A stretch of DNA of 64,000 nt from Roseibacillus sp. (lineage in GTDB: Bacteria; Verrucomicrobiota; Verrucomicrobiia; Verrucomicrobiales; Akkermansiaceae). The notes under the pieces are model-generated. The model had not been told where the DNA came from and ran no database searches. It was given only the letters and a program-made list of their open reading frames with translations. Where the stretch lies: contig JBPOGI010000001.1 of the NCBI GenBank assembly GCA_051251855.1, positions 1,024,001 through 1,088,000 on the forward strand, read 5' to 3'. Below are positions 31,323 through 50,693 of this stretch, piece after piece (positions within the stretch are counted from its first letter, which is position 1; every line of letters begins with the position of its first letter). The translations under genes were made by a program, and so were the position numbers.

Positions 31323-32021
31323 TTAGCTGCCAGAGCCATCGGGTGGAGGACCGCTGCCTGCTCCGCGAGCGTCTTCGGTTCCTGGCTTTTTACCGGACTT
31401 TCCTGCTTTCGGGCGACCGCCCGAGGAGCAGCCTTGTCATTGGCTGGGGATGGGAAGGCCGTAGAGTTCGGCGGGGTCGATACGTGCGAGGCGGATGGTG
31501 GCTTCGAGGTCGTCGGCGGAGGTCTTGGCGAGTTCGGGATCGGCGGCGGTTTGGGCGAGGAGCTTGTATTCTTGGCGAGCGGCTTCGATTTCGGGCTCCC
31601 ACTCGGAATCGGGGAGGCCTTCGAGCTTCATGAGGTAAGTCATGTAGTACCGCGCATTGGCGAGGGCAGCCCGGGTTTCGTCACGAAGCTGCGGGTCGGC
31701 GTTGGGGTCTTGGTCGAGGACGAGCATGAGTTCAGCGAGTTCTTCGCGGGCTTCGGGGAGCTTCTTGTTGAGCATTTTCGCTTTCGCGATTTCGAGCTCT
31801 ATGCGACGGGCAGTGGTGACCTCTTCTTTGGGAAGTTTGCCCATGGCGGCTTCCCAGCACTTAATGGCTTGAGAGTAGTCCTCGTCGGCAAGAGCGGCTT
31901 CGGCTTTGTTGATGGACCCTTGAGCCTCGTCGAGGTCGAGATGGCTTTGTCCGGGGCCGAAATGCCATGCGGCAAATGCGAGCGGGATGAGGAGCCAGAG
32001 GGTTGTCAGTGCGATTTTCAT
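31323..32021 (-). CDS. Membrane-anchored TPR-like protein with an in-frame UGA (codon 195) forming a U-x-x-C motif; candidate selenoprotein (232 aa read-through, 194 aa if UGA stops)
   Basis: ATG 32021 overlaps the upstream stop (ATGA). The frame continues ...LPIPSQ-UGA-QGCSSGGRPKAGKSGKKPGTEDARGAGSGPPPDGSGS-TAA (31323). A SECIS-like hairpin follows the UGA. Confidence 0.75.
31403..31439 (-). promoter_or_regulatory. Candidate bacterial SECIS element (UGA plus stem-loop with GGUC apical loop)
   Basis: mRNA UGA CAAGG CUGCU CC UCGGGC GGUC GCCCGA A AGCAG: 5-bp lower stem, small internal loop, 6-bp upper stem, loop G22-G23-U24-C25 counting the U of UGA as 1. Confidence 0.7.
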
Positions 32022-33019
32022 GAGTGGTTGATGGTTGTGAGTAGTCTTGGTCGCTTCCACAAAGCGGAGCCAAGATTGTTCCTTTGTGTGATTAAATAGA
32101 GAATGAGCGGCAAAGAGGCCAGCAGGAAAGACGCACATGCAAGGATGATGAGGGCATACTCGCGAAGGGTTAGTTCGACCTTTTCGGCGGTGACTTGAAG
32201 GGTGCCAAGGCTGCGCAGGACGTTGGTGGGGACGTGCTTGAGGTTGCCGTCATGATACTCGCCACCGAGGCGGTTGGCGATTTCGCGCAGGGTGGAGACG
32301 TCTTGGCGTGATTGGCGGCCGTCGATGAAAGAGCCCTTCATGGGGTCGCCGACGCCGACGACGAGGGCGCCTCCGACGGAGGGTGGCATACGTGGCATTC
32401 CAGTGGGAGGGACGGTGTCGCCGTCGGAGATGAGAACGAGGGTGGTGGAGTTGGGGAGCCAGTCCTGTGCGATTTTGGCGGCTTCCTCGAGGCCGTCGAA
32501 GAGGCGGGTTTTTCCGGTTTCAAATGCGTAGTGCATGGGGAGGTCGCCGAGGATATTGAGAAGGACTTCGCGGTCGCGGGACTCTTTGACGACGGGTTTG
32601 GCTGAACTGTAAGTCGCGACTACGGTGAAGTGCATTTTCTCGTCTGAGACGCGTTGCAGGAGAGACTTCACCAAGGCAGAGGCGCGACGGGTGCGGGAGT
32701 CGGTTCCGACTTCGCCGGCGTCTTGCAGGCGCATGGAAGGGGAGACGTCGAGGACGAGAAGAAGGTGCTCGCGGTCGGCGGGTTCGATGGTTTCGAGCTT
32801 GGAGCGATGAGCCTTGGGTGAAAGGAGGAAGAGGGTGGAGAGAGCCCAGGCGATGATGGTGAGGCAGAGAGTCCTAACAAGAGGAACAATCCACAGGAGG
32901 AAGGAAGGGGTTTCTTGGAGCAGTGACTTTACCGCCGAAACGCGCTTCCAGTGCATGACTTCGGCCGCGGCGACAAGAATCGCAACGGCGAGTGAGATGA
33001 GAATGGAGGTGGTCATCAT
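32018..33019 (-). CDS. VWA domain membrane protein (BatB-like)
   Basis: MIDAS motif LDVSPSM and later ISDGD; N- and C-terminal TM segments; TAATG overlap with the upstream VWA gene. Confidence 0.85.
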   Translation of the reverse strand: MMTTSILISLAVAILVAAAEVMHWKRVSAVKSLLQETPSFLLWIVPLVRTLCLTIIAWALSTLFLLSPKAHRSKLETIEPADREHLLLVLDVSPSMRLQDAGEVGTDSRTRRASALVKSLLQRVSDEKMHFTVVATYSSAKPVVKESRDREVLLNILGDLPMHYAFETGKTRLFDGLEEAAKIAQDWLPNSTTLVLISDGDTVPPTGMPRMPPSVGGALVVGVGDPMKGSFIDGRQSRQDVSTLREIANRLGGEYHDGNLKHVPTNVLRSLGTLQVTAEKVELTLREYALIILACASFLLASLPLILYLITQRNNLGSALWKRPRLLTTINHS

Positions 33020-35629: not shown

Positions 35630-36634
35630 CTAGCTGACCGAGGCTTCGAGGATCTCATTGAGGACGCCCTTGGGAGTCTTGCCTTCGGCGAGAGCTTCGT
35701 AGGAAAGGCGGATGCGGTGGAGGCAAACGTCTTCGGCGAGGGCAAAGAGGTCTTCGGGGATGACGTAGTCGCGACCGTGGATGAGGGCGCGAGCGCGGGA
35801 GGCCTTGAGGAGAGAGATTCCTGCACGAGGAGAACAGCCGAGTTCGAGGTCGGGGTGTTGGCGAGTGCGCTCGACGACGTCGATGACGTGTTTGAGAAAG
35901 ACGTCCGAGACGTGAATGTCGTGCACGGCTTGGGTAGCGTTGACGAGGTCTTCGGTAGTTCCGACTGCGTCGCCGCCGATGAGATCGAATTCCGTTTTGG
36001 CGACTGCTCCGCCGTCTTTCTTGCTGATGCCTAGCCTCATGTTGCGACGGAGAATTTCTTCCTCTTCCTCAGGGGTGGGGTAAGTGAGGCGGTGACAAAG
36101 CATGAAACGGTCGAGCTGGGCTTCGGGAAGCTCGAAGGTGCCGGATTGCTCGATGGGGTTCTGGGTCGCAATCACGAGGAAGGGGGTGGGAAGGGAGTAG
36201 GTCTCAGCTCCGAGGGTGACCTTACGCTCTTGCATGGCCTCTAGAAGAGCACCTTGAACCTTGGGCGCGGCGCGGTTGATCTCGTCGGCGAGAAGGAGGT
36301 TTGTGAAAATGGGGCCTTTGTGGGTGCGGAAGCTGCCCGACTTTTCATCGAGAATCTCGGTTCCAACGATATCGGAGGGCAAAAGGTCGATGGTGAACTG
36401 GATGCGGCGGAAATCGAGATGAAGCGCTTTGGAGACAGTGTTAACCAGAAGAGTCTTCGCCAGCCCGGGCATTCCTTCGAGGAGAAGGTGACCCGAGGTG
36501 AGAAGGGCGATGAGAGTGCGTTCGACGACCACGTCCTGTCCGACGACAATTTCGCCAGTTCGTTCTCGGATGGATTGGAGCCACGCGGACGTGGCCTCGG
36601 ATGAAGGGTGAGGTGCGCTCATAGAAAGGGTCAT
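35630..36634 (-). CDS. MoxR family AAA+ ATPase
   Basis: HLLLEGMPGLAKT, RIQFT.DLLPSDI.G, LLADEINRA.PKVQ.ALLEAMQE, ATQNPIEQ.GT.LPEAQLDRF, GCSPRA. Confidence 0.95.
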   Translation of the reverse strand: MTLSMSAPHPSSEATSAWLQSIRERTGEIVVGQDVVVERTLIALLTSGHLLLEGMPGLAKTLLVNTVSKALHLDFRRIQFTIDLLPSDIVGTEILDEKSGSFRTHKGPIFTNLLLADEINRAAPKVQGALLEAMQERKVTLGAETYSLPTPFLVIATQNPIEQSGTFELPEAQLDRFMLCHRLTYPTPEEEEEILRRNMRLGISKKDGGAVAKTEFDLIGGDAVGTTEDLVNATQAVHDIHVSDVFLKHVIDVVERTRQHPDLELGCSPRAGISLLKASRARALIHGRDYVIPEDLFALAEDVCLHRIRLSYEALAEGKTPKGVLNEILEASVS

Positions 36635-48187: not shown

Positions 48188-49231
48188 TTATAAAACAGCT
48201 TTGGTTGGGAGTTTATTCAAGATTTCCTGAATCAATTTGGGGCCTTTGTAAATGAAGCCCGTGTAGAGCTGTAAAAGAGTGGCTCCGGCTTCCAGCTTTG
48301 CGAGGGCATCTTCAGCGGTCATGATACCACCGACTCCAATGATTGGAACTGATGAACCTAACTCGGAGTGAAAGGCCGCGATCGTTTTGGTCGAGAGTTC
48401 GGTTTCAGGGGCACCTGAAAGTCCTCCTTGTTCGGCGGCATATCGATGACCTTCCACTTTCTTGCGCTCGATGGTGGTATTGGTCGCAACGAGAGCGTCG
48501 AGGCCCCCGTCTCGAAAAACTTGGGCGAGCTCCTTGATATGATTCGCGTGAAGGTCGGGGGCCACTTTGAAAGCGATGGGAACGTTTCGGCTTGTGGTGC
48601 TCCTTAACTTTTCGCGCTCTTGTTGAAGCGTATCCAAGAGCCGAGCCGTCGAATCTGCAGCTTGGAGGTCCCGCAGACCTGGGGTATTAGGCGACGACAA
48701 GTTGACAGTGATATAGTCGGCCACAGGGTAGGCCGCACGGAAGGCGATGAGGTAATCGTCGACGGCCTTTTCGTTGGGTGTGGCCTTATTTTTCCCAATA
48801 TTGAAGCCGACTGGGCCTTGGAAGGTTCGATGATTGCGGACATTGGCGACTCCGATATCGATACCGGGGTTATTGAATCCCATGCGATTAATGAGTGCTT
48901 GGTGTTCAGGTAGACGGAAGAGTCGTGGTTGGGGATTTCCGGATTGGGGCCGAGGAGTGATGGTTCCGATTTCGATAAAGGAGAAACCGAGACGACCAAA
49001 AGCATCGATAGTGTTGCCTTCTTTATCAAGACCTGCAGCGAGTCCGACTGGATGGGCGAAGGTGAGGCCCATGCATTCCACCGAGTCGGTAGAAGGTAGT
49101 TTGGGAGCCATGGCTCCGAGCAGGCCTGACTTTTCAGCGATCCGAAGACTCGATAGCGAAATGTCATGAGCCTTCTCTGCGTCGAGGGTGAAGAGAAAAG
49201 ATTTGAGGAGAGGGTAGGTCGTCGTGAGCAC
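48188..49231 (-). CDS. pyrD: Quinone-dependent dihydroorotate dehydrogenase (class 2)
   Basis: GLAAGLDK, EIGTITPRPQ.GNP.PRLFR, INRMGFNN, NIGKNK, NLSSPNTPGLR, KVAPDL, GGLSG, IIGVGGI. Confidence 0.96.
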   Translation of the reverse strand: MLTTTYPLLKSFLFTLDAEKAHDISLSSLRIAEKSGLLGAMAPKLPSTDSVECMGLTFAHPVGLAAGLDKEGNTIDAFGRLGFSFIEIGTITPRPQSGNPQPRLFRLPEHQALINRMGFNNPGIDIGVANVRNHRTFQGPVGFNIGKNKATPNEKAVDDYLIAFRAAYPVADYITVNLSSPNTPGLRDLQAADSTARLLDTLQQEREKLRSTTSRNVPIAFKVAPDLHANHIKELAQVFRDGGLDALVATNTTIERKKVEGHRYAAEQGGLSGAPETELSTKTIAAFHSELGSSVPIIGVGGIMTAEDALAKLEAGATLLQLYTGFIYKGPKLIQEILNKLPTKAVL

Positions 49232-49301: not shown

Positions 49302-50693
49302 CTACTTGAAGAACTCGCGAAGAGCTTTCTTTTCGTCGGGATGCAGATCAGGAGCGACCTTCCAGATGAGTTCGCCGCCTTCGCCCAAATCTTCGACGGT
49401 TCCTCCGCCGCGCACGCCCACTTTACGCTCATCGACGCGGTGCTCGCCGTCTTGTAATTCGAGAAGGTCTCCGGGAAGAGTGTTTGAGAGGTCGCGCGAC
49501 TCGAGCCCCTCAAGGTCGCCCGCATCAAGTTCATCTCCCTTTTGCCCCAGCACGCCTGGTGCGGTTCCAGGCCCTCGACCGAGGCCTCCGTTGCCAGCAC
49601 CCTCTTGGCCTTCACCATCTTGTCCTTGACCCTGACCAGGGCCTTGTCCGTTGCCTTGTCATCCAGGGCCTCCTTCCTGCATGAGTTCGTCGAGCCACTC
49701 ATCGCCCTGTCCCTGACCTTCGCCGGGCTCTCCTTCGCCCCCTGCGTTTTGCATTTGCTGGGCTTGCTTACGCATGTTTTCGCGTAGCTGATCCATCTGC
49801 TCTTGAGAGAGATTTCCCAGCTTCTTGGGATCCATGCCACCGAGTTGTTTGAGCAACTCTTTATTCGGTTTCATTGCTCCGTTGTTCATCTTCTCAAGCG
49901 ACTGGTCAAACTCATCAAGAAGGCGTTCACGCGTTTCGGGGTTCATGCTTTCGCTATGATTTTGGAGAGCATTGAGGGCGCGCTCGGCTTTGCGTATGTC
50001 GCGTTCCAGTTCTTTGAGCTGCTGCTCGTGAGCCTCCTTAAGGCTATCGGTGGCTTCGAGCGAGGAATGGTCAAACCACTCTTCTTTCGGTTGCTCGCGG
50101 AGCTCTTCAACTTTCTCTTCAATTTCGTCGAGATAGTCCTCGTCAATGATGTCGTCCTTACGAAGCTCATCGATACTGGCCTGAAGTGCTTGCCGGTTGG
50201 CCGGCTCTTCGGGTGGGGCCGCGTTGGGATCGTTTTTAGCTGAAATCGGAAGAAAAAATGCAGCCGAAAGGAGCAGTAAGGTGGCGAGAGGAGGGATGAG
50301 AAGTCGAGGCCAATTCCAGCTCGTGCCATCGCTGGTCTCTTCGGCGACTTGGGGCCAAGGAGCGACCCCTTGTCTAGCTGCGGTGAGAGAGTTGTTTAAC
50401 GCCATAGCAGACTCGATGCGGACCAAGGCATTTTCCGTCGAAGTGAAATGTCGGCGAGCTACGAACCAGGCGATCAAGATCACAATGGCTAGGATACCAC
50501 AGGCCACTGCGAGGGAGGGCATCCAAGGAAAGGCGGCCCACTCTCGGCGAGCGAGCATGACGAGGCCTGCTCCCACGAGACCAGCGATGAGAAGGGGGAG
50601 AGAGAGCTTTTCCAAAAACCACGCCCAATTGAAACGCCGAGCCGTCGCCTTGGCGATTGCGAGCCAGCGTGATTGGACAGAACCTTCAGCCAT
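49302..50693 (-). CDS. Hypothetical membrane/coiled-coil protein with an in-frame UGA (codon 345) in a Gly/Gln-rich linker; 463 aa if read through (recoding candidate or nonsense mutation)
   Basis: ORFs 49659..50693 and 49302..49553 share a frame. Reading through gives ...QEGGPG-UGA-QGNGQGPGQGQGQDGEGQEGAGNGGLGRGPGTAPGVLG...LHPDEKKALREFFK-TAG with no other stop. Confidence 0.65.
49628..49661 (-). promoter_or_regulatory. Candidate SECIS-like hairpin with GGUC loop downstream of the in-frame UGA
   Basis: mRNA UGA CAAGGCAACGGACAA GGCCCU GGUC AGGGUC: 6-bp stem with one G-U pair, loop at nt 25-28; no lower stem seen. Confidence 0.5.

Follow-up and report, generated by a model that had tools for sequence, protein, structure and literature searches.

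The gene on the reverse strand at positions 49302..50693 of a 64,000-nucleotide stretch of Roseibacillus sp. DNA, here called the window, is interrupted by an in-frame TGA (49661-49659) that is very likely decoded as selenocysteine (Sec) by the SelB/tRNA-Sec pathway. Because the codon would then specify an amino acid, the gene would yield one protein of 463 residues and not one of 344 residues. It is highly probable that this product is a three-helix, membrane-anchored coiled-coil protein with a SelB/SECIS-directed Sec345, and that it comes from an unnamed family of Verrucomicrobiota. This is a new selenoprotein family with an already known mechanism. A preliminary description of the same DNA had raised several readings of the TGA; the insertion of Sec is supported, a nonsense mutation or an error is contradicted, and the remark that the site has no CxxC partner fails for the family as a whole. 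The features discussed below are as follows.

49302..50693, reverse strand: whole gene, 463 codons if the TGA is Sec, then a TAG stop
49304-49302, reverse strand: TAG stop of the long frame
50693..49659, reverse strand: open reading frame (ORF) of 344 amino acids that starts with ATG and ends at TGA 49661-49659
49659..49661, reverse strand: in-frame TGA, codon 345, predicted Sec, from the frame and the context shared with relatives
49743..50693, reverse strand: residues 1-317, three hydrophobic helices and then a helical acidic coiled coil, as modelled by AlphaFold2
49578..49742, reverse strand: residues 318-372, low-complexity linker rich in Gly, Gln, Glu and Pro that holds the Sec codon, with low pLDDT
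49644..49658, reverse strand: spacer of 15 nt between the UGA and the hairpin, 15 nt long in 6/6 TGA-bearing genes of the genus
49628..49643, reverse strand: SECIS-type hairpin with the stem GGCCCU/AGGGUC, from folding and the fit to the bSECIS model
49637-49634, reverse strand: GGUC tetraloop of the hairpin, its first nucleotide 21 nt past the UGA
49305..49577, reverse strand: residues 373-463, conserved C-terminal segment, from invariant residues and pN/pS

The layout of the ORFs agrees with what had been described from the letters of the window. The 344-residue ORF ends at the TGA within the linker (...DELMQEGGPG, TGA, QGNGQGPGQG...), and a further 118 codons without a stop lead from there to the TAG. 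The ORF for dihydroorotate dehydrogenase (pyrD, 48188..49231, Pfam DHO_dh) has its GTG 70 nt on. The hairpin GGCCCU-GGUC-AGGGUC, which had been proposed 3' of the UGA, was located at 49643-49628, with its base 15 nt past the TGA. Its stem is formed by six pairs, including one G-U, and folding gave no convincing lower stem, as had also been remarked. In section 5 of PMC13188914, the bSECIS consensus model is defined by a loop of 3-9 nt, a stem of 4-16 bp, a G within the first two loop positions, a spacing from the UGA of 16-37 nt, and a minimum free energy of -7.5 kcal/mol or lower. The window hairpin satisfies this model with its GGUC loop, 6-bp stem, distance of 21 nt, and energy of -9.1 kcal/mol. 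The latter value, calculated for the 19-mer hairpin, was equalled by 2 of 200 shuffles, and that of the 42-mer from the UGA onward (-10.3 kcal/mol) was equalled by 46 of 200. Folding energy alone is weak support for a hairpin beyond chance, and the energy over 42 nt is ordinary for a G+C-rich stretch. An Rfam cmscan of 49400-49800 at E ≤ 10 found no SECIS family, and its sole match was raiA-hairpin (14.9 bits, E = 3.6). When the whole genome was scanned for hairpins with a GGTC tetraloop and at least 4 bp located 12-30 nt after a TGA, 402 TGAs were returned, with no spacing enriched; 33 of these 402 matches lie within long open frames, and most are noise-like. For this reason, a strict GGTC tetraloop does not define the SECIS set of this genome.

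The comparison with relatives, in contrast, gives strong support. An in-frame TGA in the linker was found in at least 15 genes of the family, six from the same genus, at least six from three other genera of the same taxonomic family, and three from a second family, although the genomes that carry it are related and these counts are not independent events. Within the genus it occurs in six of nine genomes, and G001, G003, G006, G008 and G002 show the same TGA in the context GG-x-G U. Among the 150 matches listed, from 301 genomes, 12 have the TGA, and those outside the genus belong to g15 (n = 4), g12 (n = 1) and g11 (n = 1); in family f4, it is present in 3 of the 28 matching genomes. A tree of 23 sequences was also built, and 9 of its 20 inner branches are not resolved. 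Each of the 15 TGAs is followed by a hairpin whose apical loop lies 18-23 nt downstream. In g1, g11 and g12, a GGUC(A) loop begins 21 nt past the UGA and the stem sequences vary, as in the hairpin UCCUGGU[GGUCA]ACUAGGA of G197. The hairpin of g15 is CCC-G-GCCA[GGA]UGGC-GA-GGG, and those of f4 are GCUCU[GGUC]AGGGC, GGGGUCA[GGUC]UGGCUCC and AGGGCCA[GUC]UGGCUCU. When eight hairpins were aligned, 89.6% of the cells paired, and double-sided changes occurred at two pairs; the covariation is modest, as 39 of 500 shuffles matched the observed score.

It had been cautioned that the stem could be a by-product of the G-P-G-Q-G codons. This concern is answered by codon usage across 47 homologs, in which Pro-Gly-Gln is encoded by CCTGGTCAG in 0 of 19 cases in TGA-less genes versus 5 of 12 in TGA-bearing genes. 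Likewise, the octamer CTGGTCAG is present in all six TGA-bearing genes of the genus versus none of the 13 aligned TGA-less homologs. In G006, Ser takes the place of Pro, and the paired letters CU are still kept. As judged from these alignments, the presence of the hairpin goes with the TGA and does not follow from the peptide sequence. In the alignment of homologs, which had been suggested as a check, the TGA is shared by 14 other genomes and the hairpin is retained.

The sequence after the linker was compared with its counterparts in eight congeners. Over these 91 codons, pN was 0.10-0.21 and pS was 0.63-0.83, i.e., saturated, and dN/dS was 0.07-0.09 in both pairs where it could be computed. 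By these ratios, the C-terminal 91 codons are under strong purifying selection; a measurement of dN/dS past the TGA had been proposed as a check. The ratios bear on the alternative that the TGA genuinely terminates translation, either because the gene has been truncated by a recent nonsense mutation, pseudogenization or a sequencing error, or because it is split, with a tail that is untranslated or started internally. Gene callers do end the gene at the TGA, and an in-frame GTG at 49553 could serve as an internal start for an ORF of 83 codons. However, this sole internal start is located downstream of the invariant RGPGTAPG motif, and ribosomes must therefore pass the TGA to translate that motif. 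Moreover, the TGA is common to six of nine congeners whose synonymous sites are saturated and to other genera, the tail is under purifying selection, and the frame continues past the TGA in all 15 genes despite the differing lengths of the linker. A mutation from GGA to TGA or an assembly error, which had been offered as one possible origin, also fails because other genomes share the TGA and have kept the hairpin. Reads had been named as a further check; at the level of letters, the contigs from four public runs are identical, including at the TGA, although all of them come from one study that may be the source of this DNA and are not independent support. The public runs listed as containing the sequence were DNA runs, with no RNA run among them. 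Genuine termination is, accordingly, very improbable.

The genome encodes the machinery that the insertion of Sec would need. SelA (455.6 bits), SelB (331 bits, cut-off 242), SelD (375.9 bits) and tRNA-Sec (63.9 bits, cut-off 47) all score above the curated cut-offs. The selD gene itself has one in-frame TGA, with the hairpin CGCA[GGUCU]UGCG 32 nt on, and the hairpin GGGC[GGUC]GCCC lies 18 nt past the other in-frame TGA of the window (about 31440). SelB and tRNA-Sec were also confirmed in eight congeners and in G037, in a check that left out G191, G254, G234, G122, G197, G221, G336 and G338. The full Sec machinery, together with a TGA, a bSECIS-type hairpin and its spacing in 14 other genomes, is what upholds the earlier suggestion of Sec insertion. 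The host bacterium is marine.

A reassignment of UGA to Trp or Gly throughout the lineage (NCBI codes 4 and 25) would also open the frame, and the abstract of PMC13462651 reports the reassignment of UGA to Trp in some Verrucomicrobiota. Nevertheless, 364 of the 1595 open frames with 400 or more codons terminate at TGA here, release factor RF2 is present (476 bits), and the homologs of the window gene in G015, G020, G034 and G038 end with TGA. In relatives, residues other than Trp are aligned with the site. Elsewhere in the genome TGA functions as a normal stop, and reassignment can be regarded as extremely improbable.

Programmed read-through that does not depend on a SECIS is harder to dismiss. 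Among the stop codons of bacteria, UGA is known as the one most prone to leakage, and a near-cognate tRNA, for Trp, Cys, Arg or Gly, could decode it at low frequency to give a major isoform of 344 residues and a minor one of 463 residues, with no selenium involved. The Gly-rich neighbours of the codon, the presence of Gly, Glu or Asn and not Cys at the site in relatives, and the unremarkable energy of the hairpin over 42 nt are in keeping with this view. However, read-through does not explain why a hairpin with a G-rich loop lies 18-23 nt after all 15 TGAs and is absent from TGA-less genes, why its loop resembles that of the genome's own SelD SECIS, or why SelB and tRNA-Sec are found in all of the TGA-bearing genomes tested. 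In addition, a low level of leakage would leave most of the protein without the strongly selected C-terminal segment. This explanation is considered improbable, and decoding as Sec remains the preferred one.

On the basis of the observed reading frame, the hairpin, their conservation and the purifying selection past the TGA, we infer the binding of the hairpin by SelB, the incorporation of selenium and the role of the residue. The hairpin 15 nt past the UGA would serve as a SECIS of the bacterial type, and the SelB-GTP-Sec-tRNA(Sec) complex would bind to the G-rich apical loop at a distance of 21 nt from that codon. This complex would be delivered to the ribosome in competition with RF2, and ribosomes that lose to RF2 would release a 344-residue product without the conserved C-terminal segment.

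The E. coli fdhF SECIS, the textbook case, is a hairpin within the coding sequence just past the UGA, and its GGUC apical loop exposes a G and a U for SelB; the stem of its minimal form begins 11 nt from the UGA. The window hairpin likewise lies inside the coding sequence past the UGA and has a GGUC loop. It differs from the fdhF element in that it has neither a bulged U nor an extended lower stem, its base is 15 nt from the UGA, and the sequence of its stem is unrelated. In a broader sense, the gene resembles known bacterial SelB/SECIS genes in its in-frame UGA, in the stem-loop directly 3' within the coding sequence, and in the TGA orthologs of other Sec-using genomes. Unlike in those genes, the predicted Sec has no recognisable redox motif or folded active site around it, and the nearest relatives have Glu, Gly or Asn, not Cys. 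Hairpins of this kind, whose loop is GGUC or GGUCU, also occur in two further genes of this genome, namely the other UGA gene of the window (about 31323-32138, reverse strand), a UxxC gene in a Bat/MoxR-like operon, and selD. The former also encodes a membrane or envelope protein tied to a MoxR-type system. In both, however, Sec stands beside a Cys (UxxC, and C-A-G-U in SelD), the spacings are 18 nt and 32 nt, respectively, versus 21 nt here, and the proteins are unrelated.

The residues found at the site deserve separate consideration. The absence of a CxxC partner holds for the window gene but not for the family, in which a CxxC about 30 residues upstream is common (20 of 34 TGA-less loci and 55 of 120 database homologs). 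In G037, G336 and G338 of family f4, a UxxC occupies exactly the CxxC columns; it aligns cleanly with the CxxC of G328, G027 and the same 20 of 34 TGA-less loci. At the U345 column, L012 has a Cys, and 9 of 107 database homologs have a lone Cys in the corresponding part of the linker, both within a low-complexity alignment. Since such an alignment is uncertain, the match between Sec and Cys at site 345 is only suggestive. The linker has no Cys at all in 44 of 120 database homologs. In close relatives, the site is occupied by Glu (P0059 and P0037, the latter with 87% identity), Gly or Gln (G004, a TGA-less congener resembling R. persicicus), or Asn or nothing (G005 and G007), and such non-Cys residues in the closest relatives are atypical for a functionally important Sec. 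Comparison of these sequences suggests that Sec345 may have replaced the CxxC located about 30 residues earlier, which is present in most relatives and was lost in this genus. Sec345 may be a reactive chalcogen on a flexible tether, with a possible part in redox reactions, in metal binding or in a selenylsulfide link to a partner, for which the UxxC protein of the Bat-like operon in the window is one candidate.

The window protein has hydrophobic helices at about residues 30-50, 57-80 and 128-147. The AlphaFold2 model, built from 26 sequences, contains helices at 2-51, 57-80, 128-147 and 165-317, with pLDDT values by block of mostly 73-91. The mean pLDDT is 68.4, and residues 320-444 have no fold, with values below 50 across most of them. 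The linker that carries Sec345 is probably disordered according to this model, although the input was shallow and low confidence is weak evidence of disorder. It holds the short helix DEWLDELMQE and varies in length and sequence between species. The Sec site falls within about 60 residues that include neither Lys nor Arg, so trypsin would yield no usable peptide. Conserved residues of the N-terminal part include W10, N22, W25 and R49. The C-terminal segment, with the pattern RGPGTAPGVLG...DLSNTLPGDLL...GEH...GGG...W...P.EK.AL..FFK, is conserved across the order, and R373, G374, G376, H418, G431, G439, G440, L450, P452 and E454 are invariant in 26 sequences.

Of 41 related genomes, 33 have a full-length homolog, as do 170 of the 301 genomes of the taxonomic family. 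A Pfam scan of the window protein matched no family at E ≤ 0.05, and for the 118-residue tail nothing exceeded the cut-off; with NCBIfam, too, neither the read-through protein nor the tail matched anything over the cut-off. A profile search of solved structures returned only coiled-coil noise (E ≥ 0.088), and a protein-atlas search returned only unnamed clusters of Verrucomicrobiota. Neither Verrucomicrobiota nor DUF4175 appears in the text of the review PMC13188914, and the text of the BSepDB and deep-Sep papers does not mention Verrucomicrobiota, DUF4175 or MoxR.

One UniRef record names a homolog from Haloferula a 'DUF4175 domain-containing protein'. The window protein is similar to the DUF4175-type proteins encoded beside MoxR/DUF58 in its N-terminal membrane anchor, its long helical and low-complexity region, and the family's association with a MoxR AAA+ ATPase cluster. 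In a Pfam scan of 26 members at E ≤ 0.05, which matched 35 families, the 25 with the most matches did not include DUF4175. MoxR is encoded directly downstream of the gene in 19 of 47 loci, and in G016, the order is the homolog of the window gene, MoxR, a 606-aa protein, an ABC ATPase, a 501-aa protein and DUF58. Unlike at DUF4175-type loci, the gene is beside MoxR in none of the nine loci of its own genus, where the orthologous MoxR is on another contig.

A further reading, rather unlikely on present evidence, is that the UGA and its SECIS form a translational gate and do not serve to place a catalytic residue. The supply of selenium and the capacity of SelB would then set the ratio of the 344-residue stub to the 463-residue protein, and only the full form would carry the conserved C-terminal segment, which would bind a partner. 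Three observations would be explained by such a gate: the position of Sec in a disordered Gly/Gln tract, the use of Glu, Gly or Asn in place of Cys by close relatives, and the persistence of the TGA across lineages with saturated synonymous sites. If it exists, the gate would tune an envelope system associated with MoxR to the selenium status or redox status of the cell.

As a consequence of the predicted decoding as Sec, the gene would be mis-annotated in every TGA-bearing genome, cut at residue 344. It would also place Sec outside a folded active site, which is rare. The nearest relatives have non-Cys residues at the site, whereas in more distant ones CxxC or UxxC occurs at another point of this linker, and pipelines in which the top matches have to include Sec/Cys pairs are likely to miss such genes. 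For the family, a reactive position occupied by Cys or Sec would offer the first clue to the function of a membrane protein that is uncharacterised and often encoded beside a MoxR ATPase.

The gene is composed of two same-frame parts with a TGA between them, and a hairpin follows the TGA:

50693 to 49661-49659, minus strand: open reading frame of 344 aa, from ATG to TGA
to 49304-49302, minus strand: same-frame continuation of 118 codons, up to a TAG
49643-49628, minus strand: hairpin GGCCCU-GGUC-AGGGUC, 15 nt after the TGA, six pairs including one G-U, GGUC tetraloop

The factual statements made from the sequence beforehand are all correct. The TGA lies within a Gly/Gln/Glu/Pro-rich tract (...DEWLDELMQEGGPG-TGA-QGNGQGPGQGQGQ...), and 70 nt separate the TAG from the dihydroorotate dehydrogenase ORF. 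When the read-through protein was used as the query, full-length homologs were found in 33 of 41 related genomes and in 170 of 301 from the same family. Beyond the linker, residues 373-463 are conserved across the order as RGPGTAPGVLG...DLS..LPGDLL...GEH...GGG...W...P.EK.AL..FFK, with R373, G374, G376, H418, G431, G439, G440, L450, P452 and E454 invariant in 26 sequences. Over these 91 post-linker codons, comparison with eight congeners gave pS of 0.63-0.83, which is saturated, and pN of 0.10-0.21; dN/dS, proposed earlier as a check on the tail, was 0.07 and 0.09 in the two computable pairs. An independently initiated tail cannot explain this conservation, since the invariant RGPGTAPG motif is encoded upstream of the sole in-frame start after the TGA (GTG at 49553). 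Judged by these constraints, the tail beyond the TGA is translated.

The preliminary description had also considered a GGA>TGA nonsense mutation or an assembly error, with the TGA private to this genome. Contigs from four public runs are identical to the window sequence over the whole gene, although the runs come from one study that is possibly the source of the DNA. The TGA is common to at least 15 genes and is not a private change; the family-wide TGA figures are drawn from the 150 matches listed, with 31 more beyond them. Six of nine genomes of the genus carry it in the linker: G000 (the window's own), G001, G003, G006 and G008 once each, and G002 twice, six codons apart. The homologs in G004, G005 and G007 have no linker TGA. 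Outside the genus, it occurs in four genomes of genus g15 and one each of g12 and g11, all of the same family, and in three genomes of a second family, f4 (G037, G336 and G338). The double TGA of G002 (locus L006 on contig C4, codons 340 and 346, ..DPG-U-PDGGG-U-PNGGQD-PGQG..; assembly 79% complete) resembles a tandem duplication of 18 nt, TGA included. Of the two TGAs, the second alone lies the usual 15 nt from the GGUC hairpin; 15 nt after the first is UGACCG[AAUGG]CGGUCA, whose stem includes the second TGA.

In the gene tree, genes with and without U are intermixed inside the genus clade (support 100/99), a pattern implying repeated loss or, less probably, repeated gain; nine of the 20 inner branches are unresolved. 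Even the closest genomes differ from one another to saturation at synonymous sites. By our own estimate, an unselected TGA should have mutated to sense in most lineages by now, as seven of its nine single-base changes give sense codons. That six or more species of the genus have kept the TGA and its hairpin despite this saturation argues that Sec, or the recoding event, would be useful where the TGA is kept.

The hairpin is tied to the TGA and is present after it in every one of the 15 genes. Within the genus, the 15-nt spacing is exact in 6/6 genes (in G002, from the second TGA). The octamer CTGGTCAG occurs in all six TGA-bearing genes of the genus-level comparison and in none of the 13 TGA-less aligned genes, and in G006 the Pro codon is replaced by one for Ser (tCT) with the paired nucleotides retained. 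The concern had been raised that G-P-G-Q-G codons could give rise to the stem by chance. The codon and hairpin counts over 47 homologs counter it: Pro-Gly-Gln is encoded by CCTGGTCAG in 5 of 12 tripeptides of the 13 TGA-bearing genes versus 0 of 19 in the 34 TGA-less genes, and no linker GGUC-tetraloop hairpin was found among these 34. Three TGA-less genes have such a hairpin near the 5' end of the gene. In other genera, the stem letters differ and the loop position is the same:

G197: UCCUGGU[GGUCA]ACUAGGA
G221: ACCC[GGUCA]GGGU
g15: CCC-G-GCCA[GGA]UGGC-GA-GGG
G037: GCUCU[GGUC]AGGGC
G338: GGGGUCA[GGUC]UGGCUCC
G336: AGGGCCA[GUC]UGGCUCU

The loop starts 21 nt after the UGA in the window genus, g11, g12 and G338, and 23, 20 and 18 nt after it in g15, G336 and G037, respectively. 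A pair count over eight sequences has 89.6% of cells paired and two pairs in which both partners have changed; when the partner is shifted by one to three columns, pairing falls to 21-67%. The observed score is reached by 39 of 500 shuffles, which is moderate support. The 19-mer folds at -9.1 kcal/mol, equalled by 2/200 shuffles, and the 42-mer at -10.3 kcal/mol, equalled by 46/200. Folding energy by itself is not decisive for the window hairpin. A second small GGUC-tetraloop hairpin, CCUC-GGUC-GAGG (49573-49584, minus strand, 81 nt after the TGA, in codons for G-L-G-R-G), is probably due to chance, because no TGA is suitably spaced upstream of it.

The bacterial SECIS consensus in a 2026 review (PMC13188914) comprises an apical loop of 3-9 nt, an upper stem of 4-16 bp, a G at one of the first two loop positions that is usually followed by G or U, a UGA-loop distance of 16-37 nt and an MFE of -7.5 kcal/mol or lower. 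The window hairpin agrees on all five points (4-nt GGUC loop, 6-bp stem, 21 nt, -9.1 kcal/mol). The window genome encodes SelB (331 bits), tRNA-Sec (63.9 bits), SelA (455.6 bits), SelD (375.9 bits, with one in-frame TGA) and RF2 (476 bits), all above the curated cut-offs. SelB and tRNA-Sec were also found in all eight congeners, so codon loss in the three TGA-less congeners is not due to loss of the machinery, and in G037. The latter has two separate SelB-like matches above the cut-off (279 and 258 bits), the second spanning only model positions 2-367. Two further in-frame TGAs of the window genome can be compared:

G000 contig C7:93121-94050, plus strand: SelD gene, same-genome SECIS control, one in-frame TGA (...LSSCAG-U-ASK...)
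31323-31440, minus strand: other in-frame TGA of the window, extending ORF 31437..32138 (...PSQ-TGA-QGC..., UxxC motif)

SelD is a long-known selenoprotein family. At 32 nt, its TGA is followed by CGCA[GGUCU]UGCG atop a 10-bp lower stem. The TGA near 31440 precedes GGGC-GGUC-GCCC by 14 nt (loop at 18 nt); its gene stands at the end of a Bat/MoxR-like operon, with a MoxR homolog at 35645-36601. The G-G-U-C loop, which the E. coli fdhF SECIS likewise has, recurs among the SECIS elements of this organism; it is not universal there, since a strict genome-wide scan for GGUC-loop hairpins was uninformative. A reassigned genetic code was rejected because TGA terminates 364 of the 1595 open frames that have 400 codons or more and is thus a normal stop. 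It is the least used of the three (TAA 626, TAG 605); this low use, unusual for 53.7% G+C, may be related to UGA being heavily employed for Sec. Altogether, it is highly probable that the TGA is recoded by the known SelB/SECIS mechanism.

The family linker has two Cys/Sec hot spots. Site A directly follows the helix ...LRENMxKxAQ and is CxxC in 20/34 TGA-less loci; among 120 database homologs, 55 have CxxC, 20 other Cys, 44 none, and one lacks the RGPG landmark. In G037, G336 and G338, the TGA replaces the first Cys of this motif (U-K-S-C, U-K-G-C) and aligns with C-K-A-C of G328, a textbook Sec/Cys pair. The g15 TGA (..KPP-U-GGG..) adjoins site A. Site B, the window site, comes after the short helix DEWLDELxxEGG and holds the TGAs of the window genus, g11 and g12, each as U, five or six residues and P-G-(Q/G), an arrangement that suggests a single origin. 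Locus L012 has Cys in the site-B column, and 9/107 database homologs have one in the site-B sub-linker (e.g., G-K-C-Q-G, G-Q-C-P-G-G-D-Q-P-G). Cys is absent here from the nearest relatives. Glu occurs in P0037 (87% identity, sister to the window gene, support 100/97) and P0059, two database homologs; G005 and G007 have Asn or Gly/Gln, and G004 has lost the segment, keeping a ccc-ggt-cag-ggc remnant. Another homolog, P0050, has a Cys-rich insert in this sub-linker (..GNCPGGNCPGCPDCQG...), suggesting that this stretch is able to turn into a site with several thiols that may bind metal.

Because it is repeatedly replaced by Glu, Gly or Asn, Sec345, if inserted, shows itself not to be essential to core function. 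Site-A CxxC is absent from all 12 genes with a lone U. The favoured reading is that Sec345 would be a reactive chalcogen on a flexible tether, substituting for a lost CxxC. Alternatively, the UGA-SECIS pair could be a gate at which selenium decides between a 344-residue stub and the full protein, which we consider unlikely. PMC4513850 reports a recoding efficiency of 30-40% in E. coli; if that figure applies here, some truncated product is to be expected under either reading.

No Pfam or NCBIfam family was found for the window protein, and a sequence search of solved structures gave no relative. Its database homologs are "hypothetical protein" entries from Roseibacillus (78% and 60% identity), Haloferula, Luteolibacter and Akkermansiaceae. 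One homolog has the UniRef label "DUF4175 domain-containing"; DUF4175 is absent from the 25 most-matched of 35 Pfam families for 26 scanned members, and the window protein has no Pfam match. An AlphaFold2 model (mean pLDDT 68.4, 26-sequence alignment) has confident hydrophobic helices at 2-51, 57-80 and 128-147, which are interpreted as membrane-spanning. Residues 165-317 are also helical, structure is not confidently predicted between about 320 and 444, and two short helices lie at the C-terminus. With a net charge of about +3 at the N-terminus and ARRH after helix 2, the positive-inside rule hints that the long C-terminal part may be periplasmic.

In 19/47 loci, the next gene downstream, on the same strand, encodes a MoxR-type AAA+ ATPase, an undercount given the short flanks of several loci; in the window genus this is so in 0/9 loci. 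In other genera the family gene is the first of a cluster; in G016 (L065, G016:C127:24000-34459), the order is family gene, MoxR, 606-aa protein, ABC ATPase, 501-aa protein and DUF58, the 606-aa and 501-aa proteins both being without a Pfam family. The orthologous MoxR of the window genome (79% identity) is on another contig (L064, G000:C6:160000-172000) with no linker-Sec gene beside it, and is followed by a 788-aa protein without a Pfam family. The linker-Sec gene has moved away from the MoxR cluster in this genome.

A literature search gave no paper pairing Roseibacillus with selenocysteine, and titles and abstracts on selenoproteins, SECIS and Verrucomicrobia contain no such protein. The main texts of the 2026 review (PMC13188914), BSepDB and deep-Sep mention neither Verrucomicrobiota nor DUF4175, and those of BSepDB and deep-Sep do not mention MoxR; their supplementary tables may list more families. 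The window gene would probably fail filters that require Sec/Cys pairs among the top hits. It represents a new selenoprotein family in which the position of Sec is atypical and the decoding mechanism is a known one.
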